This document shows positions 1,562 through 64,000 of a stretch of 64,000 nucleotides of DNA, one piece after another. The number at the start of each line of letters is the position of its first letter. Position 1 is the first letter of the stretch. The stretch comes from an uncultured bacterium (lineage in GTDB: Bacteria; RBG-13-66-14): the NCBI GenBank assembly GCA_964577465.1, contig CAZNZF010000004.1, forward strand, positions 834 to 64,833, given 5' to 3'. A model generated the notes under the pieces. The model made no database searches and had not been told where the DNA came from. It saw nothing but the letters and a program-made list of their open reading frames with translations. The position numbers and the translations under genes were made by a program.

Positions 1562-2119
1562 TCATCCGCTCAACGCCTTCAGTTTTCCCCAGGAGAGGCG
1601 GACGGTCCCGGCGTCGCCCGTCAGTTTGACCCAGACCTCGCGCCGGTCCAGCTCCTTCCACACCGAGCCCGACGGTCCCTCGCAGGCACCGACGACGAAG
1701 ACCAGCCGTACGTCGCCTCCCCGACCGTTCGGCGTGATGAAGAGTTCGGCGTGGTACGCGCCGCGACCGACGAGGGCCCGGTCGGTGACGAAGCCCGACC
1801 AGCGAAAACCCTCCGGCGCGGGGTCGTTGAACTCCAGCCAGGCGGACGAGCTCCGGCCGGGCTCGAGCCGCCCCGCGGCGTACCCGCCGTACCCTTCGGC
1901 TTCGACCGACCAATCGTCCGGTGTCAGGACGCCGAGAAAGCCGCAGGCCGTTTGGTCGGAGTCGGCCATCACGTGGAGCGTAACGGGGAAGCGCTCGCCG
2001 GGCGCAATCCGCGGCGGCGCCTCCACGGAGGTGAAGTCCAAGCAGCCCGTCGCCAGAATCCCGGCCAGCAGCGCGCAAACCGAGCGTAGCGAGCTACGCC
2101 CCTGGCGAAATGCCTTCAT
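1562..2119 (-). CDS. Secreted lipoprotein (..LLAGILATGC lipobox-like), paralog of 763..1317. C-terminal ..SWGKLKALSG
   Basis: ORF 1562..2416 trimmed to ATG at 2119 with a GGAGG RBS upstream. Shared internal motif with the neighbouring gene. The first ~11 codons are encoded by a copy of repeat family B. Confidence 0.55.
   Translation of the reverse strand: MKAFRQGRSSLRSVCALLAGILATGCLDFTSVEAPPRIAPGERFPVTLHVMADSDQTACGFLGVLTPDDWSVEAEGYGGYAAGRLEPGRSSSAWLEFNDPAPEGFRWSGFVTDRALVGRGAYHAELFITPNGRGGDVRLVFVVGACEGPSGSVWKELDRREVWVKLTGDAGTVRLSWGKLKALSG
2078..2112 (-). repeat. Repeat family B copy (ATTTCGCCAGGGGCGTAGCTCGCTACGCTCGGTTT on the minus strand) embedded in the 5' end of the lipoprotein CDS
   Basis: Matches copies at 9648, 27781, 28998, 29086, 29824, 51448 and 63940. 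Read in frame as ..KAFRQGRSSLRSV.. (the N-region of the signal peptide). Confidence 0.7.
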
Positions 2120-2390
2120 GGAAACCTCCCCCGGATTGCGGCTCGAAGACGGCCGTACACCACCGAAACGCGTTTCCGGCGGAAATGGTTCCCCCCGAAT
2201 GCCGCCCTTGACAGGCCCCCGGAGGCCCCGTAAACTTGGCGCCGACATGCGAAGGAACACGACGACAGCCGAAGGCTCCCGGAGAAAGGGGGGCGGCGCG
2301 ACGCCGCGCACGGTCGTCGAGGTGCGCTGAACCCCGACGGTCCGGCGATGGGCGCCGGTCACCCAGCCATTTTTTCCGGGAGATGACACC

Positions 2391-5069
2391 ATGACGGATA
2401 AGACCATCCCCTCCAAGTACGACCCGACGGAAATCGAGGCCCGCTGGTATCCCCATTGGGAGCGGGCGGGTCATTTCCGCCTTAACGAGAATGCTCCGGG
2501 GCCGGTGTTCACCGTGGTCATCCCGCCGCCCAACATCACCGGCTCCCTGCACATGGGCCACGCCCTGAACAACACCATCCAGGACATCACCATCCGCTTC
2601 AAAAGGATGCAGGGGTACAAGGTCCTGTGGCAGCCGGGCACCGACCACGCCGGAATAGCCACCCAGAACAAGGTGGAGCAGGCGCTGGCCGCCGAGGGCC
2701 TCACCCGGCACGACCTGGGGCGGGAGAAGTTCGTCGAGCGCTGCTGGGCCTGGCGCGATCAGTACGGCCGCGAAATCGTCGAGCAGCTCAGGCTCCTGGG
2801 GTGCTCCTGCGACTGGGAGCGGGAGCGCTTCACCATGGACGAGGGGCTGTCGCGGGCCGTGCGCACCGCCTTCAAGGCGTACTACGACGCGGGGATGATC
2901 TACCGCGGCGCGCGCATGGTCAACTGGTGCACCCGCTGCCACACCTCGATTTCCGACCTCGAGGTGGAGTACGAGGACCAGAGCTCCCACCTGTGGTACG
3001 TCCGCTATTCCCTGGCCGACGGCTCGGGGAGCCTCGTCGTGGCCACCACGCGGCCGGAGACGATGCTGGGCGATACGGCGGTGGCGGTCCATCCCGAGGA
3101 CGAGCGGTACGAATCCTTCATCGGCCAAGAGGTGGACCTGCCGCTCACCGGGCGGAAAATCCCGGTCATCGCCGACGACCGCGTGGACCCCGCCTTCGGC
3201 ACCGGGGCGGTGAAGGTGACCCCGGCCCACGACCCCAACGACTACGAGATGGCCGGGCGTCACGGCCTGGAAAGCCGGGTGGTCATCGACTTCGAGGGGC
3301 GGATGACCGCCGAGGCCGGGGCCGGTTACGCGGGGCTCGGCGTGGAGGAGTGCCGGAAGAGGGTCGTGGCCGACCTCGAAGGATTGGGCCTGTTGGAGAA
3401 GACCGAGGACTACGCCCATTCCGTGGGCACCTGCTACCGGTGCCACGAGACCATCGAGCCGCTGGTGAGCGAGCAGTGGTGGATGGACATGAGCCCCCTG
3501 AAGGGACCCGCCATCCGCGTCGTGGAGACGGGGGAGGTGCGGTTCATCCCCGAGCGCTGGACCAGGGTCTACCTCGACTGGATGGAGAACCTGCGGGACT
3601 GGAACATCGGCCGCCAGCTCTGGTGGGGCCACCGGATGCCGCTGTGGTACTGCGACGCCTGCGGCGGAATCGTGGTGGAAATCGAGACCCCCGAGCGGTG
3701 CCCGGAATGCGGCGGGCCGCTGCGCCAGGAGGAGGACGTCCTGGACACTTGGTTCTCCTCGGCGCTCTGGCCGCTTTCCACGCTGGGATGGCCCGACGAC
3801 GAAGAAGAGTTGAAACGGCTGTACCCCACCGCCGTCCTCTCCACCGCGCCGGACATCATCTACCTCTGGGTGGCGCGGATGATAATGAGCGGGATGCACT
3901 TCCGCGGCGAAAAGCCCTTCAGCCACGTGTACCTCCACGCCACCATCCTGGCCCAGGACGGCCGGCGGATGAGCAAATCCCTGGGAACCGGCGTGGACCC
4001 GCGCGAGGTCATCACCGACTTCGGCACCGACGCCCTGCGCTTCACCCTGGTCATTCTCACCGGCCAGGGGCAGTCGGTGCGGCTGTGGGAGGACCGCTTC
4101 ACCGTGGGGCGCAATTTCGCCAACAAGGTGTGGAACGCCGCCCGCTTCCTCCAGCTCAACCTGGCCGGGAGTCATCTGGCCGACGAGGCCCCGCTCAGCG
4201 CCGCAGAGCTGCCCGACGACCGCGAGCTCAACCTGGAGGACCGCTGGGTCATCTCCAAGCTCGGCCGGCTGGCCGGGGAGGTGACCGACGCGCTGGAGGC
4301 GTACCGTTTCAACGAGGCGGCGCACCTCGCGTACGAGGCGTTCTGGCACGACTACTGCGACTGGTATCTGGAGCTCATCAAGCCGCGCCTGTACGGCGAC
4401 GACTATAAGGCCAAGGGTGTGGCGCTCGCGGTGGCGCTCCACGGGATGCGCCTGCTGTTGAAGCTCCTGCACCCGTTCATGCCCTTCATCACCGAGGAGC
4501 TCTTCCACCGCCTGTTCCCCAACGCGCCCGCGGACCTCATGGTCTCGCCCTGGGAGGACCACGAGGACTGGCCGGGGTACGCGGGGGACGAGGAGCACGT
4601 GGAGCGGCTGCAGAAGCTCATCGACGCCGTGCGCAACATCCGGGGCGAGATGGGCGTCCCGCCCGGGGCCAAGGTCCGGCTCCTGGTGAAGACCACCGAC
4701 GGCGACCTGGCCGCCCTCGCCCTGGCCCAGGCCGGATTCTTCGCCAACCTGGCCGGCGTGGAGGGAATCCAGACCGGCCCGGAGGTGGTCAAGCCCAAGG
4801 GGGCCGCCGTGGGCGTGGCGGGCGACGTGGAGCTCTACGTGCCGCTGGCCGGGGTGGTGGATTTCTCCGCCGAGCTGGAGCGCGTGAAGAAGGAGCTGGG
4901 GAAGGTCCGCGAGCGGCTGTCCAAGGTCGATAAAAAGCTGGCCGACTCCCAGTTTCGGGAAAAGGCCCCCGCCGAGGTCGTCCGGGGCGAGGAGGAGAAG
5001 CGGGACCGGCTGGTGGCCGAGCTCGAGGCCCTCCAGCGGCACCTGGCCCATGTGGAAGAGATGCTCTAA
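2391..5069 (+). CDS. valS: Valyl-tRNA synthetase
   Basis: 892 aa. Class I HIGH-type motif (SLHMGHA) and KMSKS-type motif (RMSKSLG). Editing domain and a C-terminal coiled coil typical of ValRS. Confidence 0.95.
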   Translation: MTDKTIPSKYDPTEIEARWYPHWERAGHFRLNENAPGPVFTVVIPPPNITGSLHMGHALNNTIQDITIRFKRMQGYKVLWQPGTDHAGIATQNKVEQALAAEGLTRHDLGREKFVERCWAWRDQYGREIVEQLRLLGCSCDWERERFTMDEGLSRAVRTAFKAYYDAGMIYRGARMVNWCTRCHTSISDLEVEYEDQSSHLWYVRYSLADGSGSLVVATTRPETMLGDTAVAVHPEDERYESFIGQEVDLPLTGRKIPVIADDRVDPAFGTGAVKVTPAHDPNDYEMAGRHGLESRVVIDFEGRMTAEAGAGYAGLGVEECRKRVVADLEGLGLLEKTEDYAHSVGTCYRCHETIEPLVSEQWWMDMSPLKGPAIRVVETGEVRFIPERWTRVYLDWMENLRDWNIGRQLWWGHRMPLWYCDACGGIVVEIETPERCPECGGPLRQEEDVLDTWFSSALWPLSTLGWPDDEEELKRLYPTAVLSTAPDIIYLWVARMIMSGMHFRGEKPFSHVYLHATILAQDGRRMSKSLGTGVDPREVITDFGTDALRFTLVILTGQGQSVRLWEDRFTVGRNFANKVWNAARFLQLNLAGSHLADEAPLSAAELPDDRELNLEDRWVISKLGRLAGEVTDALEAYRFNEAAHLAYEAFWHDYCDWYLELIKPRLYGDDYKAKGVALAVALHGMRLLLKLLHPFMPFITEELFHRLFPNAPADLMVSPWEDHEDWPGYAGDEEHVERLQKLIDAVRNIRGEMGVPPGAKVRLLVKTTDGDLAALALAQAGFFANLAGVEGIQTGPEVVKPKGAAVGVAGDVELYVPLAGVVDFSAELERVKKELGKVRERLSKVDKKLADSQFREKAPAEVVRGEEEKRDRLVAELEALQRHLAHVEEML

Positions 5070-8850: not shown

Positions 8851-9594
8851 TTAAGTTAGGAAGAGCCAGTAGTTCAGGGTGACCATGCCGATGCCTAAGA
8901 GGGCCCCGGCCACTATCTCTCTCCAGGTGTGCACGCCGCGGCGGATGCGGGCGTCGGAGATGATGAGCGCCAGGAGGAACACGAGCACCGACACCAGCGG
9001 GTTCTCGGTCACCAGGGTGACGATGGCGAAGACGGCGAAGCTGACCGCGGAGTGGCCCGAGGGCATCCCCCCGTGGAGCGGCGTCCCGCGCCCGAGGAGC
9101 ACCTTGCCCAGGATGACCAGCACTATCACCAGGGTGAAGCTGATGAGGGTGACGTACTCGGGGCTGCCCTTCACGGCGCGGATGGCGGAGAAGATGTGGG
9201 GCTTCAGGTCCTTGAACAGAACCAGATAGCCGACGATGACCGCCGTGATGGCCGCGATGAAGACCGCCCCCGCCGAGATGTCCTTCACCAGTTTGGCCAG
9301 GGGGTGGTAGGTGGTGGTCATCAGGTCCAGCGCCTTCTCCAGCGCCGTGTTGATGAGCTCCGTCACCAGGACGAAGGCCACCGCCAGGATGACCAGGACG
9401 AGGTCGCTGCGGTCGATGTTTAAAAACAGCGACCCGGCGATGACCAGGACGCCGACGAGGAAGTGGATGCGGATGTTGCGCTCGGTCTTGAGGGTGTAGA
9501 TTATCCCCTCGAGGGCGTTGTTGAGGGACTGGGACATCCGGGGCTTCGTCCCGATGGTGCTCCGGCGCCGTTTCTGTTTTTCCTCGGGCATCAA
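8851..9594 (-). CDS. dgkA: Diacylglycerol/undecaprenol kinase (DgkA) fused to a PAP2 phosphatase domain
   Basis: N-terminal ..LNNALEGIIYTLKTERNIRIHF.. matches prokaryotic DgkA. C-terminal PSGH ... SDARIRRGVHTWREI matches PAP2 motifs. Start may be M1 or M20. Confidence 0.65.
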   Translation of the reverse strand: MMPEEKQKRRRSTIGTKPRMSQSLNNALEGIIYTLKTERNIRIHFLVGVLVIAGSLFLNIDRSDLVLVILAVAFVLVTELINTALEKALDLMTTTYHPLAKLVKDISAGAVFIAAITAVIVGYLVLFKDLKPHIFSAIRAVKGSPEYVTLISFTLVIVLVILGKVLLGRGTPLHGGMPSGHSAVSFAVFAIVTLVTENPLVSVLVFLLALIISDARIRRGVHTWREIVAGALLGIGMVTLNYWLFLT

Positions 9595-9684
9595 TCGCTA
9601 CGCTTCGTTTACGGTTGCGCCGTCGCAGGTATGCCGGGGCATTACCCGGTTTGCCGGGGGCATAGCTCGCTTCGCTTCGTTTCC
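9594..9684 (+). repeat. Repeat family B copy (full copy ~9648-9684: GGTTTGCCGGGGGCATAGCTCGCTTCGCTTCGTTTCC) plus partial fragments and one family-C-like unit (ACGGTTGCGCCGTCGCAGGTATGCC)
   Basis: Intergenic, between the ybeY stop and the dgkA start. Sequence identity to other copies. Confidence 0.65.
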
Positions 9685-15984: not shown

Positions 15985-16004
15985 CAAGGGGTTTAACCCC
16001 CTTG
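15985..16004. repeat. Palindrome family A copy (CAAGGGGTTTAACCCCCTTG)
   Basis: Between the propeller gene stop (16012) and the cytochrome b start (15967). Confidence 0.65.
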
Positions 16005-27780: not shown

Positions 27781-27831
27781 TTTACCGGGGCATTACTCGC
27801 TTCGTTTGGTTTTCAAGGGGTCTCAAGCCCC
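27781..27831 (+). repeat. Repeat family B copy (TTTACCGGGGCATTACTCGCTTCGTTTGG, missing one CTTCG unit) followed by a degenerate family A half-palindrome (CAAGGGGTCTCAAGCCCC)
   Basis: Intergenic, upstream of the REC gene at 27757. Confidence 0.6.
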
Positions 27832-28997: not shown

Positions 28998-29030
28998 ATT
29001 TGCCAGGGGCATAGCTCGCTACGCTCGGTT
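28998..29030 (+). repeat. Repeat family B copy (ATTTGCCAGGGGCATAGCTCGCTACGCTCGGTT)
   Basis: Intergenic, between nadD and the REC-GGDEF gene. Confidence 0.7.
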
Positions 29031-29085: not shown

Positions 29086-29120
29086 GTTTTGCCAAGGCAC
29101 TACTCGCTTCGCTTCGTTTT
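29086..29120 (+). repeat. Repeat family B copy (GTTTTGCCAAGGCACTACTCGCTTCGCTTCGTTTT)
   Basis: Directly abuts the nadD stop at 29122. Preceded by a GGGGG...CCCCCCCCC hairpin (~29059-29084). Confidence 0.7.
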
Positions 29121-29715: not shown

Positions 29716-29823
29716 TCTTCGACCGCCGAGGATGGGAAGCGAAAAAGGTTACGGCCCGGCGAAAGGACCAGCATCAGGATTTTACCATAATAATGCGTCG
29801 GGACGGCGGGGTCTGGTAAGGAA

Positions 29824-29872
29824 CAAGGGGTTTTGCCAAGGGCATAGCTCGCTACGCTCGGTTAACCCCTTG
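29824..29872 (+). repeat. Composite: family A palindrome arms (CAAGGGGTT / TTAACCCCTTG) flanking a family B core (TTGCCAAGGGCATAGCTCGCTACGCTCGG)
   Basis: Same composite structure occurs in inverted orientation at 51448..51497. Confidence 0.7.
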
Positions 29873-29918
29873 TCTTAATCTGGGTGGTGAACGGGGGAAG
29901 CGGCGAAGGTAAAAAAAC

Positions 29919-44919: not shown

Positions 44920-45138
44920 TTTTCTTGCGGGTTACGGCGCGGCGCCTCGGAACGGGCTTTTCCCACCAGGATTATACACGCCGTCCGTTACGTTGGGTAG
45001 CGCTCGAGGGGGCGGCGCCTTGCCAAAGGACCGCGGAGGTGCTACCATTCGAGTGAAAAGAGACGTTGTCCCGTAAGGCGATGCGTTTTCCGTAAGTCAC
45101 TGTTCCACGCAGGTGGGCGAACACCCTGGGAGGTTGAG

Positions 45139-45795: not shown

Positions 45796-45833
45796 CGGCC
45801 GGTCCCGTTCAATGGCGGTTATCGCAGTGTCGG

Positions 45834-45867
45834 GCAAGGGGTAAGGCAAGGGGTTTAAACCCCTTGT
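45834..45867. repeat. Palindrome family A copy with a duplicated left arm (GGGCAAGGGGTAAGGCAAGGGGTTTAAACCCCTTG)
   Basis: Intergenic, after the OMP gene. Confidence 0.65.
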
Positions 45868-45939
45868 TCCGCGCCTTGTCTCCATTGATTCTTGACCAAA
45901 GGGGTCGTCCTTTATATCATGGGGGCCGTGAGGACGGCG

Positions 45940-49526: not shown

Positions 49527-49642
49527 AGGGACGGGCTTGGAAGCTCTTGGGGGTTATGTTAGTATTTCCCCTGTTCGCTTTTTGGTGAGATTTATTTCAC
49601 GAGCACCGGTCTTCGGTGAAAACCTGAACCTTTGGAGTAGGG

Positions 49643-51430: not shown

Positions 51431-51447
51431 TTTGATGCATAATGAGA

Positions 51448-51497
51448 CAAAGGGGTTAACCGGGCGTAGCGAGCTATGCCCTTGGCAAAACCCCCTG
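51448..51497 (-). repeat. Composite family A arms + family B core, inverted orientation relative to the 29824 copy
   Basis: CAAAGGGGTTAACCGGGCGTAGCGAGCTATGCCCTTGGCAAAACCCCCTG. Confidence 0.7.
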
Positions 51498-51500
51498 CCT

Positions 51501-51535
51501 TCAGGCGGCCGTCCCCATGGACGGCCGTTTTATTG
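51501..51535 (+). terminator. Rho-independent terminator after pckA
   Basis: GGCGGCCGTCCccatGGACGGCCG followed by TTTTATT. Confidence 0.7.
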
Positions 51536-51656
51536 CCGGGAACCGGAGGCGGTCCGGCTGCGTTTCGATAGCGATACACCGGCCGGGAACGAAAGTCCCG
51601 GGGACGCCCCCGAGGGGAGTAAGGCGGGGCCTTGCGGAGATGGATTTGCACAACGC

Positions 51657-51692
51657 GTTGACTTTTGGGGGGTTCTTCTGTTATACTACGTG
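51657..51692 (+). promoter_or_regulatory. Sigma70-like promoter (TTGACT, 17-nt spacer, TATACT) heading a ~230-nt rng leader
   Basis: TTGACTtttggggggttcttctgtTATACT. The downstream leader contains a long polypyrimidine tract, CCTTTTTACCTTTTTCCCCTTTTTTCCCTTTTTTT. Confidence 0.55.
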
Positions 51693-51919
51693 TGTAAGTT
51701 AAACGGTTTAACCCTTTTTACCTTTTTCCCCTTTTTTCCCTTTTTTTGAACCGATTATGCAGGCCAACGACTCCAGAATAGTCGTACGCCCGAACCACCG
51801 GGGGTTCCGTCGTCTCGTCGTCGGAACCCCGCTTTTGTGCCCGCCGGGGCGCTCGGCTCCCCGACCGGTCAATGGACGGCCTGCCTCGGTTCGCTCAGCT
51901 TTAAAGCACGAGGTTTTGG

Positions 51920-53485: not shown

Positions 53486-53486
53486 C

Positions 53487-53931
53487 CGTGGGCCGTCCGC
53501 CGTCCGCCGGCGTCATCCGTCTGCGCCCCCATCACCTCTTGTGCCTTGTGGCCTTTCAGGGTGAGGGGTACTCGCCGGAATTCATCGAGAAGGCTCTGGG
53601 GCTCCAGCGTGCCCTCCTGGCCGACGACGCGGTAGTCGAGCTGGTCCGCGGTCCGGACGACCTGTGCGACGGCTGCCCGGAGATGAGCCGGGAGTGCGTT
53701 TCCCTCGCTCCGGATTCGGGCGTGGAAAAGCTCGACCGCGCCGCCTCCGCCCTTCTGGGTGTTACACCAGGGCGCCGCCGGGCGGCGGAACTGCTCCTGT
53801 CCATGAGGAAAACCTTCACCCCCGAGCGCGGGTACAAGGTCTGCGCCGGTTGTTCCTGGCTGCCCCGGATGGACTGCCCGCGGGTCATCGCAATCCGGCT
53901 GAAGGAGCTTTTCCCGAAACAAGGGGCTTGA
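53487..53931 (+). CDS. DUF1284-family Cys-rich protein
   Basis: ..IRLRPHHLLCLVAFQGEGYSPEFI.. matches the DUF1284 N-terminal signature. Conserved Cys pairs (CDGC, CAGC). Only a GTG start is available, 2 nt after the rng stop. Confidence 0.5.
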
Positions 53932-53939
53932 GCCCCTTG
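53920..53939. repeat. Palindrome family A copy (CAAGGGGCTTGAGCCCCTTG) overlapping the stop codon of the DUF1284 gene
   Basis: The last codons ..K Q G A * are encoded by the left arm and loop of the palindrome. Confidence 0.65.
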
Positions 53940-53955
53940 CCACGGCGGAGGATAC

Positions 53956-55746: not shown

Positions 55747-55812
55747 TTATTTAGATAATGTTAAAAACTAATAAAATGAGATAGTTAACTCCGCGGATGT
55801 TTGAGGGGTAGC

Positions 55813-56790
55813 ATGGGCAAGACAGTGGTTATCTTCTTATTTTTCGCCGTCGTCGCCCTGCCCGCCGCCGCCGCGGAAATCACCGCTGTTGACCTGGGTG
55901 TCCCCGGTGTGGAAATAGCCGAAGGTGAGGAGGAGGCCGAGCTGTCGCCGGAGATGCGCGCCCAGCTCGAAGAGAGCGCGGACAGCTACTTCCGCATTGC
56001 TCTGGAGAACCTGAATACCCCGGACATCGCCGGTGTATACCCCGCAGTGCTCTTCAAGGCCGGGGAGTGCTATGAAAAGGTAGGTAACTGGACCAAAACC
56101 CAGGAAGCTTTCACCCTCTACGGCCAGAGGTATGGTGAGACGGGCGTTCCGGACCTGGTAGTGGATTCCTTCTACCGCGCCGGTCACGCTGCGTTGATGT
56201 TGGGCAAAGTGGAGGAGGGTCGCGAGCTTCTCTTAGAGTGTGTAGATGCGTATAAGGATTTCAACTCCAGGCCCGGCGTCGAGGTGAACTTCGATATCCC
56301 GGCCAAGGCCTATATAGAGTTAGGCGACCTGCTCTTCGATAACTACGCGGCGATCACCCTCGAGGGCGACCTGATGGACCTGGACCCCCTGGTGCAGACG
56401 GCGACGAAGAAGTACGGGCTGATGAACGAGCTGGCCGAGTTATACGGCCGTGCCGCCAGGGCCGCCGATACAGAGGTGAACTTCTCAGCCCGCTACAAGG
56501 CCGGATTGGTGTACGAGCTGTTCTACCGCACCGTCAGCCAGATGAAGCTCAGTTTCGCCACCCTGGACCAGCTCATGGAGGAGAACCCGGATGAAGCCGC
56601 CGAGCTCGAGGAAATCGTCATGGAGCAGCTGGCCGAGTTCCAGGCCCAGATGGACTCCTGGGCGGAGGAGAACGGGCTCAACAAAGCGATCCAGGTGTAC
56701 GAGTTCATTATCCGCAGCGCTGAGGAGCACGGCGAGACAAACCAGTGGGTGCTCAAGGCCAAGGAACGCCTGGCGGAAATCGTTCCGTAG
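55813..56790 (+). CDS. Secreted hypothetical protein (lower GC than neighbours)
   Basis: Signal peptide MGKTVVIFLFFAVVALPAAAA. Helical, possibly TPR-like. The ORF begins at 55801. Confidence 0.45.
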   Translation: MGKTVVIFLFFAVVALPAAAAEITAVDLGVPGVEIAEGEEEAELSPEMRAQLEESADSYFRIALENLNTPDIAGVYPAVLFKAGECYEKVGNWTKTQEAFTLYGQRYGETGVPDLVVDSFYRAGHAALMLGKVEEGRELLLECVDAYKDFNSRPGVEVNFDIPAKAYIELGDLLFDNYAAITLEGDLMDLDPLVQTATKKYGLMNELAELYGRAARAADTEVNFSARYKAGLVYELFYRTVSQMKLSFATLDQLMEENPDEAAELEEIVMEQLAEFQAQMDSWAEENGLNKAIQVYEFIIRSAEEHGETNQWVLKAKERLAEIVP

Positions 56791-56836
56791 GTCTACATGT
56801 TTTTTAACACCCCGCCTGGTGCCCGGTGGAGTAGAA

Positions 56837-56950
56837 ACCCCTCACCCGAGCCCGTAGGCGAGCCTCCCCCCAGAGGGCGATGGGATAAAAAGAACCCCCC
56901 TCCCCGGCCCGTAGGCGAGCCTCCCCCCAAGGGGGGGAGGGAGAACAAGG
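56837..56950 (+). repeat. Tandem ~56-bp direct repeat with G/C hairpins, immediately upstream of rph
   Basis: Two units sharing GCCCGTAGGCGAGCCTCCCCCCA. The second unit contains the perfect hairpin CCTCCCCCCaaGGGGGGGAGG. It ends at the rph RBS AAGGAG. Confidence 0.6.
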
Positions 56951-56956
56951 AGTAAA

Positions 56957-57676
56957 GTGTCCGCACGGTACGACAGCAGAAAGGCCGACGAGATGCGGCC
57001 CGTCAAGTTCACCCGCAACTACATCGAGCACGCCGAGGGCTCCGTCCTCGTCGAGTTCGGCGGCACCCGCGTGGTCTGCACGGCCACGGTGGAGCAGGGC
57101 GTCCCGACCTGGCTCAAGGGCGCGGGCAAGGGCTGGATAACCGCCGAGTACGCCATGCTCCCCCGCTCCACGGGCCAGCGGAGTAAGCGGGAGAGCTACG
57201 GCCGTCCCAGCGGGCGCTCCCTGGAAATCGGCCGTCTCATCGGGCGCAGCCTCCGGTCGGTCACCAGGCTCGAGAAACTCGGCGAGCGCACCGTCACCAT
57301 CGACTGCGACGTGCTCACCGCCGACGGCGGCACCCGCACCGCGGCGGTAACCGGCGGCTGGTTGGCCCTGCACGACGCTCTGGTCTGGCTCGGCGGCGGC
57401 GAGGAGACGGGCGCCCTGCCCATCGCCGACCACGTGGCCGCGGTGAGCGTGGGGGTCGTGGCCGGGGACGAGCTTCTGGACCTGTGCTACCGTGAGGACG
57501 TGGCCGCCGACGTGGACGCCAACATGGTGATGACCGGCGCCGGGAATTTAATCGAGGTCCAGGCCACCGCCGAGGGGAAGCCCTTCGACCGCGCCTGCCT
57601 CGACCGGCTTTTAAACCTGGCCACCAAGGGAATCAACGAGCTGGTGGCGCTCCAGCGCGAGGTCCTGCAAGGATAA
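56957..57676 (+). CDS. rph: Ribonuclease PH
   Basis: Near full-length similarity to RNase PH (..VKFTRNYIEHAEGSVLVEFGGTRVVCTA...TADGGTRTA..). Confidence 0.9.
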   Translation: MSARYDSRKADEMRPVKFTRNYIEHAEGSVLVEFGGTRVVCTATVEQGVPTWLKGAGKGWITAEYAMLPRSTGQRSKRESYGRPSGRSLEIGRLIGRSLRSVTRLEKLGERTVTIDCDVLTADGGTRTAAVTGGWLALHDALVWLGGGEETGALPIADHVAAVSVGVVAGDELLDLCYREDVAADVDANMVMTGAGNLIEVQATAEGKPFDRACLDRLLNLATKGINELVALQREVLQG

Positions 57677-57679
57677 CCG

Positions 57680-58159
57680 ATGCCGGATGCGGATAACGAG
57701 CTGTCCTGGTGGGTGTACCCCCCGGCGCTTTACCCCTGGCGAGCCCTGGCGGGGATCGCGGTCCTGAGCCTGGTGGTGATTTTCCTCATCTACTACGCCG
57801 GCGGCCCGGTGGTTGGAATCGTTGGCGGGGGTGTCATCTTCTTCGTCCTCAACGGGTTTTTCCTGCCCTCGAGTTATTCCCTCGACGAGGAGGGCGTGGT
57901 CTGGCGCCGGTTGTTTTTCCGCTTCAAGCGGCCCTGGAGCCACTTCCGCTGCTACTACGCCGACCGCTTCGGCGTGATGCTGACCCCGGGCAGCCGGCCG
58001 AGCCGGTTGGACCCCTGGCGCGGCATGAACCTGTGGTTCGGGCCGGTCGATGAAGAAAAAAATTCGAAAGGCACGAACCGGGACCGGGTGCTGGACTTCA
58101 TCAGACGGTACGTGAAGCCCTACCGTCCCCCGATGGACCACCGGGACGTTCTGGGTTGA
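57680..58159 (+). CDS. Membrane-anchored bacterial PH-like (bPH_2/DUF304-type) protein
   Basis: Two N-terminal TM helices followed by a ~90-aa soluble domain. Start 4 nt after the rph stop. Confidence 0.4.
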   Translation: MPDADNELSWWVYPPALYPWRALAGIAVLSLVVIFLIYYAGGPVVGIVGGGVIFFVLNGFFLPSSYSLDEEGVVWRRLFFRFKRPWSHFRCYYADRFGVMLTPGSRPSRLDPWRGMNLWFGPVDEEKNSKGTNRDRVLDFIRRYVKPYRPPMDHRDVLG

Positions 58160-58202
58160 TTTCCCCCGTTCCCCGTCGGAGCGGGATCGGAAAGAGTAGA
58201 AC

Positions 58203-60632
58203 ATGATGGGCATGGGTGGAGCGAAGCGGTTCGAGTGGCGGGCGTCGCCCCCCGACTGGCGGGGTCGGCACCGCATCTGCCGCGAGCTTCTCATCCACCC
58301 GGTCACGGCCCAGGTGCTCCTCAACCGCGGCATAGGCAACCCCGCCGAGGCTTTCAGTTTCCTCTACAGCGCCGTCCACCACGACCCGTTCAAGTTCCTC
58401 CAGATGGAGACGGTGGTCAAACGGATTCTCCGGGCGGTGGAGGACGGCGAGGGCATCTTCGTCTTCGGGGACTACGACGTGGACGGCATCACGGGCACGG
58501 TGGCGCTGGTGGACTTCCTCACCCGCATCGGCGCCCGCGTCGGCCACATGGTCCCCAACCGGCTGACCCAGGGGTACGACCTCTCCCCCAAGGTGGTGAC
58601 CGAGACGAAGGCCGCCGGGTACGGCCTCCTCGTGACCAACGACTGTGGGGTCACCGCCCACGAAGCCGCCCGGCACGCCAGGGAGCTGGGGCTGGACCTC
58701 ATCATCACCGACCACCACCTCCCCGACGAAAAGCTGCCCGACGCCCTGGCCATCATCAACGGCAACGTCGGCGGCTCCGGCTATCCCTTCTCCGGCCTGG
58801 CCGGGGTGGGGACCGTGTTCAAGGTCATCAGCGCCCTGTCCCGGACCCTCGGTCGGGGGCCGGACCCCGAGGAGTACCTGGACCTCGTCGCGCTGGGGAC
58901 GGTGGCCGACGTCTCGCCGCTGGTGGACGAGAACCGCGCCCTGGTGGTGGCCGGTCTGGCCCGGATGAACAGCATCCCCCGCCTGGGGCTGGCCGCGCTC
59001 ATCGACTCGGCCGGGCTGGGGGGGAGGCGCATCGGCGCGAAGCAGCTCTCCTACGTCCTGGCTCCGCGGCTCAATGCCGCCGGTCGTATCGCCACCGCCG
59101 AGGTCGGGGTGGAGCTCCTGCTCTGCGAGGACGCCGACGAGGCCTACCGCCTGGCGATGCGCGTGGAGTCGCTCAACCGTCAGCGGCGGTTGATCGAGTC
59201 CGAGACGACCCGGGAGGCCATGGCCCTGGCCGAGGACGACATCGCCTTCGAGGAGGTGCCGGTCATCGTCGTGGGGAGCAACGACTGGCATCCGGGTGTG
59301 GTGGGGATTGTGGCTGCCCGGCTGGCCGACCGTTTCTCCCGTCCGGCGGTGGTCTTCGGTGAGCTGGGACGCGGCTCGGCCCGGGGGTATGGCGATTTCG
59401 ACGTCATCGGTGCCCTGGACGAGTGCGCCGACGTCATCGAGGATTACGGCGGCCACCTCCACGCCGCCGGCGTCCGCATCAAGTTCCCCAACCTCCCGGA
59501 GCTGCGGCGGCGGATAAACGAAATCGCCCGGCGCAAGCCCATCGCTCCCCACCCACTCCTCGAGATTGACGCCGAGCTCCGCCTGACCGCCATCAACGAG
59601 CAGCTCCTGTGGGAAATCGAGAGGCTCGACCCGTACGGCATCGGCAATCCCGAGCCGGTGTTCCACGCCGGCGGGGTCATGCTGGCCGACGAGCCCCGTG
59701 TCGTGGGGAAGAACCATCTCAAGCTCGTCCTGACCCAGGACGGTGCCTCGTTGGAGGCCATCGCCTTCGGACGGGCCGACCTGGCCAGTTACCTGCCCCG
59801 CGCCCGACCCTTCGACATCGCCTACCACCTGGAGCGCAACACCTTCCACGCCGGCTCCAACATCCAGCTCCGGGTGCTGGATTTCGACCTGGAGGAGCGG
59901 GTCCAGAGCGGGCCCTCCAGCGTGTCAGTGGACGACCGCCGTGATTCGGCGGCCATGGAGGACCGACGGCGAGCCGTCCTGGAGATGGTGACCGCGGGAC
60001 CGACGGTCATCTACGCCGGCTCGGACCGACGCCGGGACATCCAGCGCTTCCTCGCCCTGAGCGGGTATCTGCCCGCCACCGTTCCCGCCGACCTCGACGA
60101 CCGGCACTACCTCTTCTGGGAGACCCTGACCATCGGTGGGTTCAAGGCCCTCCCCGAGGTGTGGGCCTGTGTCTGCGACCCCTTCGACAACCCCTACGAC
60201 GCGATTCTGCTGCGGGAGCTGGGCCGCATCGCCCGGGACCTGCATCTGGTCCTCCTCTACGAGCGGCACGACCTCAAGGAGTGGCACCGCAAGGCGCTGG
60301 ACCGCGTGCGCCTGGCGGAGATATACCGCGACCTGCCCAAGGACGAGCCGTTCAGCGACGACATCATCGTCCAGTTGAGCGGCCGGTGGCTGACCCGCGG
60401 TGAGGCCCGGCTGGCCCTCTCCATCTTTCTGGACCTGGGGCTTCTGACCCGGCGGAACGGCAGCTACGAGGTGGTGTCGGTGCAGGACCGGCGGGACCTA
60501 TCCAAGAGCTTCACCTACCAGCGCCTGGTGCGTTTCGGGACCGAGGGGCGCCGCTTCTTCCGCCAGCAGATGGAGCTCGAGGGCCGGGAGCTCCTCCAGC
60601 TCCTGTTGAACATCTACAGCACCGTTGGCTAG
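58203..60632 (+). CDS. recJ: Single-stranded-DNA-specific exonuclease RecJ with a ~240-aa C-terminal extension
   Basis: DHH motifs (..FVFGDYDVDGITG.., ..IITDHHLP..), DHHA1 domain (..GGHLHAAG..), OB fold. 809 aa, versus ~570 aa for typical RecJ. Confidence 0.8.
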   Translation: MMGMGGAKRFEWRASPPDWRGRHRICRELLIHPVTAQVLLNRGIGNPAEAFSFLYSAVHHDPFKFLQMETVVKRILRAVEDGEGIFVFGDYDVDGITGTVALVDFLTRIGARVGHMVPNRLTQGYDLSPKVVTETKAAGYGLLVTNDCGVTAHEAARHARELGLDLIITDHHLPDEKLPDALAIINGNVGGSGYPFSGLAGVGTVFKVISALSRTLGRGPDPEEYLDLVALGTVADVSPLVDENRALVVAGLARMNSIPRLGLAALIDSAGLGGRRIGAKQLSYVLAPRLNAAGRIATAEVGVELLLCEDADEAYRLAMRVESLNRQRRLIESETTREAMALAEDDIAFEEVPVIVVGSNDWHPGVVGIVAARLADRFSRPAVVFGELGRGSARGYGDFDVIGALDECADVIEDYGGHLHAAGVRIKFPNLPELRRRINEIARRKPIAPHPLLEIDAELRLTAINEQLLWEIERLDPYGIGNPEPVFHAGGVMLADEPRVVGKNHLKLVLTQDGASLEAIAFGRADLASYLPRARPFDIAYHLERNTFHAGSNIQLRVLDFDLEERVQSGPSSVSVDDRRDSAAMEDRRRAVLEMVTAGPTVIYAGSDRRRDIQRFLALSGYLPATVPADLDDRHYLFWETLTIGGFKALPEVWACVCDPFDNPYDAILLRELGRIARDLHLVLLYERHDLKEWHRKALDRVRLAEIYRDLPKDEPFSDDIIVQLSGRWLTRGEARLALSIFLDLGLLTRRNGSYEVVSVQDRRDLSKSFTYQRLVRFGTEGRRFFRQQMELEGRELLQLLLNIYSTVG

Positions 60633-60637
60633 TGAGG

Positions 60638-60659
60638 GCAAGGGGTTTAAACCCCTTGT
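60638..60659. repeat. Palindrome family A copy (GGCAAGGGGTTTAAACCCCTTG)
   Basis: Starts 6 nt after the recJ stop. Confidence 0.65.
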
Positions 60660-60689
60660 CTCCTCTAGGATCGGCTAGGACGGTCTTTC

Positions 60690-62903
60690 GTGCGTGGATT
60701 GACGCTTCTTTCCGTAGCCCTCGCCCATCTCGCCGCCGGTCAGACGACCGTCTCGCCCCAGGGCGAGCTCATCCAGCCGGTTTCGAGCCCCCCTTCACCC
60801 ACCGCCCAGGACTACTCGCCGGCGCCCTACTCCGACGAGGTGGCGGCGCTGGTGGACCTCGTCGACGCCGGGGACGTCGACGACGCCCTCGACCTCGTCC
60901 TCGCCGAGGATACCCGCTTCACCCCCACCACGGGCTGCTTCGACACCGGCACCTCGCTGGCCGTCTCCCTGCGCGCCTGGGGTTACGGGGTAAAAGAGGA
61001 CCCATTCTACACCACGCTGGTCTTCTCCGACGTGGACGCGGCCGGTGAAAACCTGTGCGCCGTGGGGCAGGCCGGGCTCATCTTCACCTCCTCCGACGGC
61101 GGGGTTCTCTGGACGCGACGGGACGACGGGACCGTTCCCGCGAGTCTTTACGAGGTCGCCTTTGCCGCCGCCGACCCGCTAAACGTATGCGCGGCCGGCT
61201 CCTCGGGGACGTTTCTTTCGAGCGACGACGGCGGGGCGACCTGGACGGCCCGTGAGCTCCCCGGCGAGGGCTCCCTCACGGTCACCGCGTTGGCGCGGCC
61301 GGCGACGGATACGGTTTACCTCGCCGGCTACACCCCCGACGGGATGGCGGCCCTGAAGAGCACGGACGGCGGAAGGCACTGGGATTACCTGAACCACGGC
61401 TTCCCGGCCGGCGCCGTCTGCTTCGGGATGTGCTTCCTCGACGAGGACACGGGCTGGCTCTGCGGCGGGACGACCGGCTCGCCCTACCGGGCTTGCATCT
61501 CCCGGACCACCGACGGCGGGGAGACCTGGGGGCTCTGGTCGGTCGACGGCCCGCTCGTCGTCAACCTGTCCTTCGCCGACGCCGACACCGGTTTCGCCGC
61601 GGGGAACGACTACGAGACGATTTTTCGCACTACCGACGGCGGTGAGAGCTGGGAGACGGTCCATAGCCTCGACGGCCCGGATTACGAGTACCTGGGCGAC
61701 GTCGAGGCGCTGTCGGTCTCTAGCGCCGTGGCGGTGGGCTACGGCGGTTGCGTGCTCGCCACGGCCGACGGCGGCGACACCTGGGATTATCTGCGCGAGC
61801 CGTCCGACGACCCCGATTACGGGCACCGGACCGCCCTCGCCGTCGTGGACTCGGAGCGTTGGTTCGCCACGGGCTACGGCGCCTTCGAGCTCACCGAGAA
61901 CGGCGGGACGGGCTGGGAAGATGAAATCGCCGACCTGGGCCTGCCGCCGGCAGTGAACGTCTACGCCTTTAAAACCGGCGCCGCGCTGGAGCCGGGCCCG
62001 CTCGTCATCGCCCCCTACGACTGCACCTCGGAGAACCCCTGGTTCGATGCGCCGGGGGCCGACGCTAACGGCTCGGGGACGGCGGCCGCTCTGGTGGCCG
62101 CGAAGGCGCTGGGCGCCCTGGAGACCGAGCGCGACCTCGGCTTCCTCTTCACCGCCACCCGCTACTCGGGCGGAGATTTAGGCCAGTCGGGAGCCCGCCG
62201 CTTCCTGGCGGAATACCCCGACCGCGACTTCCGCTCGATTCTCGACCTGGAGGCGGTGGGCTACGCCAACGACGCGAACCTGGACCTCCTGTTGACCGGC
62301 AACGTCCCCGGGGAGGAGTTGACCGACGCCGTTTACGGCTACGCCCGCGATTACGTCCCCGACCTCCCCCTGTACCGGACGACCAACGGTTTCGATTTCG
62401 GCCACGACCACGGCGCCTTCTGGGACGCCGGCTTCCCGGCGGTGCTCCTCGAAGAGTACTACTCCGAGGAGGATGAGCGGAACTTCAACGCGGGCACCGT
62501 CCACGACACCCGCGGCACCCTTTGCCCGGGCCAGATGCTCCACGCCGCCCGGCTTACCGTCGCCTTCGCCGCCGCCGAGGCGCTCTTCGCCGACGAGGTG
62601 GCCCTGGAGCCGCGCGACCCCTACGTCTTCCCCAACCCATTCCGGCCCGGTCGGGGGCACACGACCGTCACCTTCGCCGGGATGCCCGCCGGCGGGCTGA
62701 TTCGGGTTTTCGACGTCACGGGCGCGCAGGTCTACGAGGGGACCGCCGACGAGGGGCCCTTCGTAGAGGGCGGCCTGGCCACCTGGCGCCACACCTGGGA
62801 CGCGACGAATTCCAGCGGCGCGCCCCTGGCGGGCGGCGTGTATATTTACCATGCTCAGGGTCCGAAGGGAGACGCCGTGGGCAAGCTGGCGGTCATCCCC
62901 TGA
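60690..62903 (+). CDS. Secreted BNR/Asp-box repeat + M28 zinc aminopeptidase protein with a T9SS/FlgD-Ig-like C-terminal sorting domain
   Basis: Signal peptide. Seven S/T-x-D-G-G-x-T-W Asp-box repeats. M28 motifs (..GADANGSGTAAALV.., ..GHDHGAFWDAG..). C-terminal ..FPNPFRPG.TTVTF...IRVFDVTGAQV...GVYIY......GKLAVI. Confidence 0.7.
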   Translation: MRGLTLLSVALAHLAAGQTTVSPQGELIQPVSSPPSPTAQDYSPAPYSDEVAALVDLVDAGDVDDALDLVLAEDTRFTPTTGCFDTGTSLAVSLRAWGYGVKEDPFYTTLVFSDVDAAGENLCAVGQAGLIFTSSDGGVLWTRRDDGTVPASLYEVAFAAADPLNVCAAGSSGTFLSSDDGGATWTARELPGEGSLTVTALARPATDTVYLAGYTPDGMAALKSTDGGRHWDYLNHGFPAGAVCFGMCFLDEDTGWLCGGTTGSPYRACISRTTDGGETWGLWSVDGPLVVNLSFADADTGFAAGNDYETIFRTTDGGESWETVHSLDGPDYEYLGDVEALSVSSAVAVGYGGCVLATADGGDTWDYLREPSDDPDYGHRTALAVVDSERWFATGYGAFELTENGGTGWEDEIADLGLPPAVNVYAFKTGAALEPGPLVIAPYDCTSENPWFDAPGADANGSGTAAALVAAKALGALETERDLGFLFTATRYSGGDLGQSGARRFLAEYPDRDFRSILDLEAVGYANDANLDLLLTGNVPGEELTDAVYGYARDYVPDLPLYRTTNGFDFGHDHGAFWDAGFPAVLLEEYYSEEDERNFNAGTVHDTRGTLCPGQMLHAARLTVAFAAAEALFADEVALEPRDPYVFPNPFRPGRGHTTVTFAGMPAGGLIRVFDVTGAQVYEGTADEGPFVEGGLATWRHTWDATNSSGAPLAGGVYIYHAQGPKGDAVGKLAVIP

Positions 62904-62913
62904 AAGGCGTCCC

Positions 62914-64000
62914 GTGACCGATTACCGGCCCACCATCGCCTTCGAGGTCCACCTGCAGCTCGACACCGCGTCGAAGGCCTACTGCGGCTGCGCCGTCGTC
63001 TTCGGCGCCGCGCCCAACACGGTCGTCTGCCCGGTGTGCACGGGGCAGCCCGGGGCGCTCCCCGTCCCCAACCGCGGCGTCTTCGAGAGGGCCGTCCGCG
63101 TCGCCCTGGCCCTGGGCTGCGAAATAGCGGAAAAAACCCACTTCGACCGGAAGAACTACTTCTACCCCGACCTGCCCAAGGGCTACCAAATCAGCCAGCA
63201 CCCGGTGCCCGTGGGCCGCGTTGGTGAGTTTCGCTTCCCCGCGGAGCGCTACGGCGAGGCGGCCGACGCGGTCGTCAAAATCAGCCGGGTGCACGTGGAG
63301 GAGGACACCGCCAAGGCGGTCCACGACGCAAAGGGCGACACCCTCATCGACTTCAACCGCGCCGGGGTGCCGCTCATGGAAATCGTCACCGAGCCCTGCA
63401 TCCCAAATCCAGACGTAGCCTACGCCTACCTCACCGCGTTGAAGGAGACCCTGGAGTACCTGGACGTCTCCTCGTGCAGCATGGAGGAGGGCTCGCTGCG
63501 GGTGGACACCAACATCTCCGTGGCCCCGGCGGATTCAATAAAGCTGGGGACCAAGGTGGAGGTGAAGAACCTGAACTCGTTCAAGGCGGTCAAGGCGGCG
63601 CTGGAGTACGAGTTCGAGCGCCAGACGGGGATTCTGGCCTCGGGGGGGAAGGTGGTTCAGGAGACGCGGCACTGGGACGACCGCGAGGGCGCGACCCTGC
63701 CCGGCCGGGTGAAGGAGGAGGCGATGGACTACCGCTACTTCCCCGAGCCGGACATCCCGCCGTTGGCGATTCCCCGGGAGTGGGTGGAGGAGATTCGGCA
63801 AAAACTGCCGGAGCTGCCGCAACAGGCCCGCGAGCGTCTGCACGCCGCCGGTCTTTCGGGCTACGACGCCTGGGTGCTGGTGGCGGAGCGGGACCGGCTG
63901 CGCTACTACGAGGCGGTCGTCGCGGCCGGCGCCCCCGCGAAACGAAGCGAAGCGAGTAATGCCCTGGCAAAACCGGCCGCCAACTGGGTCAACGGCGACC
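62914..64000 (+). CDS. gatB: Asp-tRNA(Asn)/Glu-tRNA(Gln) amidotransferase subunit B (3' end outside window)
   Basis: GTG start, then ..TIAFEVHLQLDTASKAYCGC...GALPVPN...NYFYPDLPKGYQISQ... Open to the window end, so not listed in the ORF track. Confidence 0.85.
   Translation, partial: MTDYRPTIAFEVHLQLDTASKAYCGCAVVFGAAPNTVVCPVCTGQPGALPVPNRGVFERAVRVALALGCEIAEKTHFDRKNYFYPDLPKGYQISQHPVPVGRVGEFRFPAERYGEAADAVVKISRVHVEEDTAKAVHDAKGDTLIDFNRAGVPLMEIVTEPCIPNPDVAYAYLTALKETLEYLDVSSCSMEEGSLRVDTNISVAPADSIKLGTKVEVKNLNSFKAVKAALEYEFERQTGILASGGKVVQETRHWDDREGATLPGRVKEEAMDYRYFPEPDIPPLAIPREWVEEIRQKLPELPQQARERLHAAGLSGYDAWVLVAERDRLRYYEAVVAAGAPAKRSEASNALAKPAANWVNGD
63940..63972 (-). repeat. Repeat family B copy inserted in frame within gatB
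   Basis: AAACGAAGCGAAGCGAGTAATGCCCTGGCAAAA is 33 nt and is read as KRSEASNALAK, between ..GAPA and PAANWVNG... Confidence 0.7.

Follow-up and report, generated by a model that had tools for sequence, protein, structure and literature searches.

A 30-nucleotide repeat of Candidatus Coatesbacteria that behaves like a very small mobile DNA element

The 64,000-nt stretch of DNA analysed here (the window: positions 834-64,833 of the forward strand of contig CAZNZF010000004.1, assembly GCA_964577465.1) carries many copies of a short repeat, family B, whose unit is exactly 30 nt long. We regard family B as probably a non-autonomous and very small mobile DNA element of the REP/SDR class, specific to the lineage of Candidatus Coatesbacteria. 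Sequence comparisons show it acting like a mobile DNA element, and one that would rank among the smallest in bacteria; its sites turn over between genomes that are ~90% identical. Exact 30-nt gains or losses were found at seven or more orthologous sites in genomes 73-92% identical, and one copy, inserted in frame within gatB of the window, is derived.

The window itself comes from the genome of a related member of Candidatus Coatesbacteria, since it is 88-93% identical across kilobases to contigs of the genome RBG_13_66_14 and the relatives of its GatB are labelled Coatesbacteria. The contigs compared with it, cited below by L number, include relatives close enough to supply orthologous sites, so that filled and empty alleles could be compared.

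The repeat unit and its distribution

An earlier note on the window had described a dense family of 33-35-nt repeats in both intergenic and coding DNA. The family is real, with nine full units and one short unit in 64 kb against a chance expectation of zero, and the positions first given for the copies were accurate to within a few bases; the length was not, as the true unit is exactly 30 nt and is placed after TT. Allowing up to three mismatches, the 34-nt consensus matched five window sites and none in 100 dinucleotide-preserving shuffles, and the 16-nt degenerate core GGCRYWRCTCGCTWCG had eight exact sites. Up to two mismatches to the core added a diverged copy at 9587 (two mismatches) and a spurious site at 32322, with a mean of 1.38 expected; what had been listed as a partial copy at 9594 is a genuine site, occupied by a diverged full unit (9580-9609). 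Coding DNA holds two of the units, the disputed 5' end of the DagK ORF one and non-coding DNA the other seven; by our crude gene caller, ~10% of the window is non-coding. Two independent metagenome contigs reproduce copies base for base, namely those at 9580-9681 in L133 (99.3% identical to the window) and that at 51458-51487 in L209 (99.8%).

The unit reads TGCC-RGR-GGCR-TAGCTCGCTWCGCTCGGTT, written also as TGCC-RGR-GGCR-TAGCTCG-CTWCGCTCGGTT, and its 3' half consists of two or three copies of a 9-nt sub-repeat, GCTCGSTT. The microvariation noticed earlier between CTACGCTCGG and CTTCGCTTCG is real and separates two subtypes: type 1 ends in TAGCTCGCTWCGCTCGGTT and dominates in loops and arrays, and type 2 ends in TTACTCGCTTCGCTTCGTTT and accounts for ~24 of 229 elements, mostly naked or coding. 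Positions 4 (T/C) and 14 (A/G) covary strongly (T-A 246, C-G 84, T-G 14, C-A 7, other 5; Fisher p = 5e-57), with only weak association at a control pair of polymorphic positions, 14 and 24. The covariation is evidence that the 5' end of the unit forms a genuine 4-bp stem, YGCC/GGCR, around a 3-nt RGR loop. A 7-bp stem proposed before, GCGTAGC/GCTACGC, is complete in just 9 of 356 units, and the conserved, covarying stem is the 4-bp mini-hairpin instead. The 30-nt unit is not palindromic, has no GTAG 5' of the mini-stem and bears no terminal inverted repeats of its own; inverted stems of 10-15 bp belong only to composites in which a family A palindrome (described below) surrounds a B unit. On its reverse strand the common subtype is free of stop codons in all frames and contains ATG, and on its forward strand it has TAG in one frame.

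Beyond the window, an exact-pattern scan with one genome per GTDB species returned at least 89 matching stretches, at least 48 of them in the metagenome-assembled genome (MAG) 'Candidatus Coatesbacteria bacterium RBG_13_66_14'; further MAGs among the matches listed are Coatesbacteria CSMAG_1439 and 'uncultured bacterium binchicken_co150_225'. A metagenome scan gave at least 120 stretches, and all copy numbers from these collections are lower bounds. The family is thus abundant in at least three other Coatesbacteria genomes, and the copies of the window are far from the only ones. A position-weight profile, built from exact-core copies, found 153 units in the first set of loci against none in reversed-sequence controls, and 356 units with 243 distinct sequences once metagenome loci were added; as the loci were picked by exact pattern, the core frequencies of the profile are inflated. 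Single matches in unrelated phyla mostly fail this profile and are read as chance, and the sole viral match fails it as well. Rfam gave no match at the gathering threshold across the window, nor at E values up to 1 within 28900-29950, and ARAGORN found no tRNA or tmRNA in the window. A separate observation concerns L030, a contig binned as Chloroflexi RBG_13_51_18 and derived from the same sample series as the Coatesbacteria MAG: it carries two identical composites (2689-2761 and 3179-3251) with identical flanks, inverted and ~480 nt apart, probably because the contig is mis-binned, or through an inverted duplication or an assembly fold-back.

Genes were called with a home-made codon-usage caller. 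Among 229 non-redundant elements, 177 are intergenic, 39 (~17%) lie inside predicted open reading frames (ORFs) and 13 straddle the end of one. Complementary stems of at least 6 bp flank 104 of the 177 intergenic elements, and 83 of all 229 elements are without stems. The main host is family A, a perfect palindrome of 20-24 nt (GACAAGGGGTTTAAACCCCTTGTC), several copies of which stand 0-7 nt past stop codons with no T-run; 75 of the 229 elements carry both of its arms, GACAAGGGGTTT and AAACCCCTTGTC. A REP-like hairpin, family C (GTAGGGCGGGGATT with AAAATCCCCGCCCTAC, also GGCGGGGATT with AAAATCCCCGCC), is host to 25 elements. In both palindromes the B unit occupies the exact centre. The window has five bare and two filled family A copies; that the units at 29834 and 51458 sit in the loop of the GACAAGGGGTTT/AAACCCCTTGTC palindrome had been overlooked before. 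The composite at 29823-29873 is 96% complementary to the one at 51450, and its predicted fold has the 4-bp mini-hairpin enclosed by a 10-bp outer stem (dG -11.7, z -2.4; for the opposite strand, dG -12.8, z -3.9). As a side observation, GTAG-headed family C hairpins (GTAGGGGCGGGGC...GCCCCGCCCCTAC) often form inverted pairs in intergenic DNA of relatives (L008 7340-7420, L012 6960-7050, L136 13200-13330); at those sites the window has different sequence or B units, and family C was not found in the window.

Loops hold from one to five or more head-to-tail units with a 30-nt period, together with 21-nt short units and extra 9-mers, and several arrays run into scaffold gaps (L033, L071, L085). 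Units also occur after T-runs and after the GGTT of existing units. The repeats nest: B units are found inside B, C and D repeats (D being a 56-nt repeat described below), and B and C nest mutually.

Orientation differs among classes of copy. Coding copies are antisense by 31 to 8, partly because the reverse strand of the common subtype is stop-free; naked intergenic copies point towards the downstream gene by 43 to 27, and hairpin-borne copies run the opposite way by 23 to 52. Roughly one in three 'coding' copies is no more than 30 nt from a predicted start, and four or five are within 15 nt of a stop; some of these may really be in untranslated regions (UTRs). Within the window, gene direction switches at ~44920-45140, with minus-strand genes at 7178-44919 diverging from plus-strand genes at 45139-64000; cumulative GC skew peaks over the same interval, and the orientation of family B flips there, with seven plus-strand units to the left and two minus-strand units to the right, the copy at 2078 being the exception. 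The genes beside B copies are ordinary housekeeping genes, encoding ValRS, DagK/PAP2, YbeY, response regulators, a cytidylyltransferase, a BamD-like protein, PEPCK, RNase E/G and GatB.

Gains and losses at orthologous sites

Within gatB, the reverse-oriented unit at 63941-63970 adds exactly 10 codons (about AKRSEASNAL). Of the 12 sequences in the alignment, the window and P0122, a relative 95% identical, alone carry the 10-residue segment; orthologs at 90, 89, 88, 87, 81, 72, 71 and 66% identity lack it, as do more distant ones (nine full-length sequences, 51-90%). At the DNA level the window has ...CCCGCG-AAACGAAGCGAAGCGAGTAATGCCCTGGCA-AAACCGG where L214 has ...CCCGTG-AAATCGG and L216 ...CCGGTG-AAGGCGG, a difference of exactly 30 nt, and the junction of this type 2 unit is TTT after ATTT. 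Since the insert is limited to the window and its 95%-identical relative and the difference is exactly one unit, the polarity is fixed: the gatB copy is a derived insertion and not a deletion elsewhere. An AlphaFold model of the insert-bearing GatB (mean pLDDT 87) joins helices 326-337 and 353-369 by a loop, in which the segment makes an excursion modelled at lower confidence; this predicted placement is consistent with a tolerated insertion.

Exact 30-nt differences were found in several other settings. One pair, L112/L052 (92% identical), differs in the loop of a family C hairpin, which reads GGCGGGGATT-30 nt-AAAATCCCC in one and GGCGGGGATTAAAATCCCC in the other. Three pairs differ in coding DNA (L086/L098, L003/L163 and L189/L083), and two differ inside another B unit, directly after its GGTT (L105/L048 and L107/L025).

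Larger differences were common too. Between the window and RBG_13_66_14, whole composites differ at every intergenic site that could be compared. The composite at 51450-51497 is filled in the window and empty in L007, the family A hairpin that is bare in the window at 53920-53939 contains 2.6 units in L007, and a site filled in L008 is empty both in the window (~8840) and in a third relative, L136. L012 has an 82-nt insert where genes abut at window position 30720, and the insert provides the new stop codon of the upstream gene. L033 is filled and L073 empty with a clean ~72-nt difference, and L080/L175 add a further gain or loss of a whole composite. Between YbeY and DagK, the window has two B units; L008 has one there together with a pair of REPs, and L136 has REPs only. 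Bare family A palindromes are themselves polymorphic, as one stands upstream of the lipoprotein gene in L008 and L136 at a place where the window has none.

The junctions point to a defined target. In a genome of ~66% G+C, TT occupies positions -2 and -1 in 98% of 41 naked units, with T or A at position -3 in 86% and C or T at position +1 in 96%. The TT is still there in empty alleles, and the B unit itself ends in TT. As a unit both ends in TT and sits 3' of TT, each copy recreates its target, which would explain the head-to-tail arrays. In the same way, the pattern 'short unit + full unit + 9-mer tail' corresponds to insertion after the internal GGTT of a variant unit, as seen in L105/L048. 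At unit ends, a T redundancy of just 2-3 nt is seen; the junctions of composites lie in fast-evolving intergenic DNA, are not clean and proved too diverged for target-site duplications to be called.

Some copies are shared between genomes. That at 2078-2107, which encodes the positively charged n-region of a lipoprotein signal peptide, is kept in three genomes, matching at 30/30 positions in L008 and 29/30 in L136 with flanks 64-79% identical. Over all orthologous copies, identity is 91%, against 72% in the flanks and ~86% expected neutrally. We do not read this as purifying selection, because the excess is mostly an effect of ascertainment, one copy per pair having been chosen for its match to the consensus.

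Probable mobility and alternative explanations

To account for these observations, we suggest that a trans-acting enzyme, active on single-stranded DNA (ssDNA), would make B copies from a donor at another place in the genome. HUH/Y1 transposases, which include the TnpA proteins of IS200/IS605 and the RAYTs, recognise small ssDNA hairpins and insert 3' of a short target without duplicating it. An enzyme of this 'peel-and-paste' kind, of the IS200/IS605-RAYT type, would be the likeliest candidate, recognising the mini-hairpin and joining the unit 3' of TT. The composite of A stems and B unit may also move or vanish as a larger unit. Surviving copies would be those in tolerated places, such as gene ends, 5' leaders, protein termini and surface loops. 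Exaptation of some B copies is compatible with this reading.

A number of observations weigh against a mobile element of this sort. The mini-hairpin is merely 4 bp long, and naked units fold with no excess energy relative to shuffles (z -0.03, -0.17 and +1.5). The B unit has one hairpin, and the ends of IS200/IS605 elements use two. The orientation biases are weak and run opposite ways among classes, unlike a simple replication-strand-specific prediction. Indels within arrays and A loops are directionally ambiguous, as flanking direct repeats of GGTT or GCTCGGTT allow precise deletion. A model in which arrays arise purely by nested insertion was rejected, for although two filled/empty pairs fit it, only 11 of 40 arrays are balanced, which indicates that slippage among the 9- and 21-nt sub-repeats also acts. 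The gene calls are crude. No transposition intermediate or ongoing event was observed, and the 1.37 Mb of B-bearing DNA, all from partial genomes, yielded no enzyme that could be identified as the mobiliser.

The search for such an enzyme produced one candidate. A phmmer search with IS608 and ISDra2 TnpA sequences, together with a regular expression for the HUH motif, found nothing in the first 617 kb. The only Y1 gene in the 1.37 Mb is a RAYT at 857-1620 of L118 (metagenome contig Ga0209614_1013796), which scores 33 bits against Pfam Y1_Tnp and 91.4 bits against NCBIfam REP_Tyr_transpos (cut-off 80) and has a G+C content of 48% in surroundings of 67%. Its flanks are three direct copies of the 56-nt repeat D (GGAGAACGGACTCTTTAGTCCGTTTATCGCAGGTTGGAGAACCCGCGCTCCACGGG), one of which carries a single B insertion, and three relatives of it in other organisms are flanked by D-like GTAG hairpins with no B, two further points against the mobile-element reading. 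These findings gave no link between this RAYT and B. L127, otherwise 100% identical to L118, is without the 522-nt RAYT segment between D repeats, so the transposase shows a presence/absence polymorphism of its own. Relatives are represented by genome fragments, so that a missing B-flanked transposase is no proof of absence there, and a parent insertion sequence (IS) with the ends of family B was not noticed in the loci examined.

It is possible, if unlikely, that the whole hairpin of A stems and B loop is the mobile unit, resembling a MITE or REPIN with 10-15-bp terminal inverted repeats, that B is just the cargo it carries, and that naked B units are its decayed remnants. Entire composites are indeed present or absent at orthologous sites, the composites of CSMAG_1439 are nearly identical even in the 'AAGAC' ahead of the stem, both A stems accompany about a third of the elements (75/229), and bare A palindromes are polymorphic as well. 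However, exact 30-nt gains and losses of B also occur where no A stem is present, in C loops, in other B units, at three coding sites and in gatB, and 83 of the 229 elements are stemless. Decay of a 54-nt hairpin cannot yield an in-frame 30-nt remnant, and neither a clean target-site duplication nor a longer IS with these ends was seen.

The main mechanistic alternative is templated copy-in, by template switching primed through TT microhomology. A 3' TT end, exposed by a nick, a stalled fork or a break in a hairpin loop, would anneal to a B template, either a further copy or, through a reverse transcriptase, an RNA, copy a unit ending in GGTT and return, and repeated rounds would build arrays. 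Under this account the shared TT/TTT ends of target and unit are expected (GGTT at TT for type 1, CGTTT at the ATTT of gatB for type 2), as are strictly head-to-tail 30-nt arrays, and the 21- and 9-nt partial units match jumps between internal GCTCG repeats; in addition, no transposase is linked to B. We nonetheless rate its chances as low. The microhomology covers merely 2-3 nt, with T or A at target position -3 where the unit's own end has G, and the covariation in the mini-hairpin suggests that a strand is recognised when folded, something that templated synthesis does not need. No reverse transcriptase or template gene turned up, in work that included no systematic search for one. A bolder proposal, for which we would claim only a slim chance, is that B comes from an undescribed ssDNA 'writer', HUH/Y1-like or reverse-transcriptase-like. 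Such an enzyme would place a cassette of exactly 30 nt 3' of TT at any single-stranded site, such as a hairpin loop, an existing unit or a gene under transcription or replication.

It is distinctly improbable that family B is a functional, non-mobile cis-element kept by selection, whether a protein-binding site, a 5'-leader or promoter module, a terminator or an mRNA-stability loop. Such a function would fit the 91% identity of orthologous copies against 72% in flanks, the tendency of naked copies to point towards a downstream gene start (43:27), the third or so of 'coding' copies close to a predicted start and the position of A hairpins 0-7 nt past stops. The conservation test is biased by ascertainment, though, and sites turn over between ~90% identical genomes; tandem arrays of two to five or more units, nesting within repeats and the gatB insertion are all unexpected for a regulatory site. 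There is also no Rfam match, no sigma-70 or sigma-54 consensus by eye and no T-run after the A hairpins. Several specific candidates were tried and rejected alongside. Promoters of the sigma-70, sigma-54 and ECF kinds, compared with their consensus by eye, fail on spacing, on a sigma-54 GG/GC element one base short and on inconsistent orientation. A tRNA-fragment origin (GGGGCGTAGCTC...) finds no tRNA by ARAGORN, and the likeness stops after 12 nt. A CRISPR-like array is excluded by units that are adjacent and spacer-free. DNA uptake sequences (USS/DUS) accumulate by substitution without change of length, as a short core over-represented throughout the genome, including coding DNA; copies of B are 30-nt length insertions relative to orthologs.

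Minisatellite slippage in place, taken alone, is a very remote prospect. Copy number does differ between orthologous arrays, and the unit contains 9-nt sub-repeats (GCTCGSTT), with 21-nt units and extra 9-mers common. Yet slippage needs a local template, and over 100 unlinked sites carry a single unit, some of them in coding DNA that has no other copy nearby. Isolated exact insertions thus refute slippage as the sole cause, and it survives as a secondary process.

An assembly or sequencing artefact, through adapters or chimeric joins, is refuted: some arrays end in scaffold gaps and are hard to assemble, but L133 and L209 show the same copies at the same sites, the family recurs in MAGs from different studies and in many metagenomes, and copies lie in frame inside conserved genes.

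Relation to known repeats and features of the window

Among known systems, REPs and REPINs are short (~30 nt), very abundant, mostly intergenic, lineage-specific repeats that contain a hairpin, are nested or clustered and are presumed to be moved in trans by RAYTs via ssDNA (Bertels and Rainey 2011, PMC3116915). Family B shares these traits, being ~30 nt, abundant, mostly intergenic, lineage-specific, hairpin-bearing, nested and clustered, and it shares the setting, as B-bearing genomes also hold GTAG-headed REPs (family C) and at least one RAYT (L118). It differs in being non-palindromic, with a 4-bp mini-stem and no GTAG head, and in forming direct head-to-tail arrays at 30-nt spacing where REPINs are inverted doublets. 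It also breaks the extragenic rule, with 39 of 229 elements inside predicted ORFs and the gatB case verified against orthologs, and the only RAYT found is flanked by repeat D, not B. An earlier view, that the family is a proliferating REP/MITE-like element and not a conserved protein-binding site, gains from exact presence and absence at orthologous sites, with the amendment that B is neither a classical MITE nor a classical REP.

The SDRs of heterocystous cyanobacteria, a subject treated by Elhai et al. in 2008, are reportedly 21-27 nt long, with a mobiliser that is unknown; they are said to have been recognised as insertions by comparison of orthologous sites, and to occur often in hairpin contexts and in tandem or nested arrangements. 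Going by that description, B is similar in being very small, demonstrably inserted at orthologous loci, placed in host hairpins, tandem and nested. It differs in belonging to another phylum and in its sequence, its defined TT target, its covarying mini-hairpin and its one in-frame insertion, in gatB.

MITEs such as Correia/NEMIS, ERIC and RUP have terminal inverted repeats and are non-coding and intergenic. The A+B composite (54 nt or more) resembles them in having 10-15-bp terminal inverted repeats and in being non-coding, intergenic, present or absent and located at gene ends; the B unit does not, as it is without such repeats, shows no clear duplication beyond TT, has no parent IS in view and is far below the usual size. 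The RPE of Rickettsia (Ogata et al., 2000) are said to be selfish palindromes of 100-150 bp that lie in frame in protein-coding genes and are tolerated as extra surface peptides. B likewise inserts in frame (10 additional residues in an inter-helix loop of GatB), but it is 30 nt long and non-palindromic, with ~17% of its elements in ORFs. In the BIMEs of E. coli (RIP/RIB), a conserved linker stands between two REPs; each arm is a complete REP hairpin, and the linker L, an IHF site, is not known to occur alone in genes. A conserved, non-palindromic module of ~30 nt between inverted arms, with a variable number of units, is common to both; B, unlike that linker, occurs alone and within two unrelated kinds of arm. 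B is an element of the REP/SDR kind, closest in its workings to REP/REPIN elements and the cyanobacterial SDRs, and falls in no defined family.

Positions and contexts of the units, composites and bare palindromes of the window are collected in Table 1. The Pfam match of DagK begins only at residue 26 of its TTG-started ORF, so that the copy at 9580-9609 probably lies in the 5' UTR of that gene.

Table 1. Family B units, A+B composites and bare family A palindromes of the window
Feature	Position	Strand	Context
Bare A palindrome	1542..1561		Adjoins the stop of ORF 1562-2119; a T-run terminator takes its place in L032
B unit, type 1, CGCC/GGCG stem variant	2078..2107	-	Codons 5-14 of lipoprotein-like ORF 1562-2119 (-), MKAFRQGRSSLRSVCALLAGILATGC; B forward strand is the sense strand
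Diverged B unit TTCCTCGGGCATCAATCGCTACGCTTCGTT	9580..9609	+	YbeY-DagK intergenic region or 5' end of DagK ORF
Short 20-nt B unit TGCCGGGGCATTACCCGGTT	9632..9651	+	Abuts the 9652 unit; architecture as in the 21-nt short units of relatives' arrays
B unit, CTTCGTT tail	9652..9681	+	14 nt downstream of the YbeY stop (YbeY on minus strand); reproduced in L133
Bare A palindrome CAAGGGGTTTAACCCCCTTG	15985..16004		7 nt after a stop codon; dG -7.9, z -3.6
B unit, type 2-like, TTACTCG	27782..27811	+	~24 nt upstream of response-regulator start (27335-27757, -); followed by A-like hairpin 27815-27834
B unit, type 1, naked	29001..29030	+	~40 nt upstream of response-regulator/GGDEF start (27986-28960, -); followed by degenerate partial unit 29031-29052
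B unit, type 2, CTTCGCTTCGTT tail	29089..29118	+	3 nt past the stop of cytidylyltransferase-like gene 29122-29715 (-)
A+B composite, 10-bp stem CAAGGGGTT.../...AACCCCTTG	29823..29873	+	Family A arms around B unit 29834-29863
Bare A palindrome	45847..45866		
A+B composite, B unit 51458-51487	51450..51497	-	19 nt past the PEPCK stop, directly before a T-run terminator; in L209, missing from L007 (RBG_13_66_14)
Bare A palindrome CAAGGGGCTTGAGCCCCTTG	53920..53939		Loop of the orthologous hairpin in L007 holds 2.6 tandem B units
Bare A palindrome	60639..60658		6 nt after a stop codon
B unit, type 2	63941..63970	-	In frame within gatB (62914 to beyond 63999, +)

Several other features of the window were noted. 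Three tandem response-regulator genes (26931-28960, -) share DNA segments that are 73-82% identical, and the units at 27782 and 29001 lie upstream of them. At ~700-1560, a low-G+C insert of ~860 bp contains an ORF without a Pfam match (763-1347, -); L032 and L136 have no such insert at the orthologous positions. On either side of it stands a 32-nt direct repeat (CGCCGCCGGCCACGTCCACCGCGCGAAGT), a duplicate of the 3' terminus of the FtsX gene. At 56836-56949, between the genes at 55813-56790 and 56957-57676, there is a tandem pair of 57-nt units that share 81% identity; with GTAGGCGAGCC cores and arms of G/C runs, they may represent another small repeat family. A giant protein of 2768 residues (36613-44919, -) has PD40 and TPR repeats and a C-terminal CHAT protease domain.

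For practical purposes, B arrays break MAG assemblies, producing scaffold gaps, and B can mislead the prediction of gene starts because its reverse strand is stop-free and contains ATG; its copies might be of use as strain markers. The spread of repeats that have no room for a coding sequence or for two transposase-binding ends is poorly understood. Family B offers unusually clean evidence, combining exact 30-nt turnover, a TT junction, a covarying hairpin, a preference for loops, self-targeting arrays and a tolerated insertion in an essential gene. Were an ssDNA writer to exist, B would be a defined mobile unit far smaller than a REPIN or MITE, capable of routine 10-residue in-frame edits to proteins, and it would provide a tractable system for learning how repeats of REP and SDR size disseminate. 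For the Coatesbacteria, an almost unstudied candidate phylum, the family indicates that intergenic regions, and occasionally proteins, are remodelled over the divergence that separates genomes of ~90% identity.

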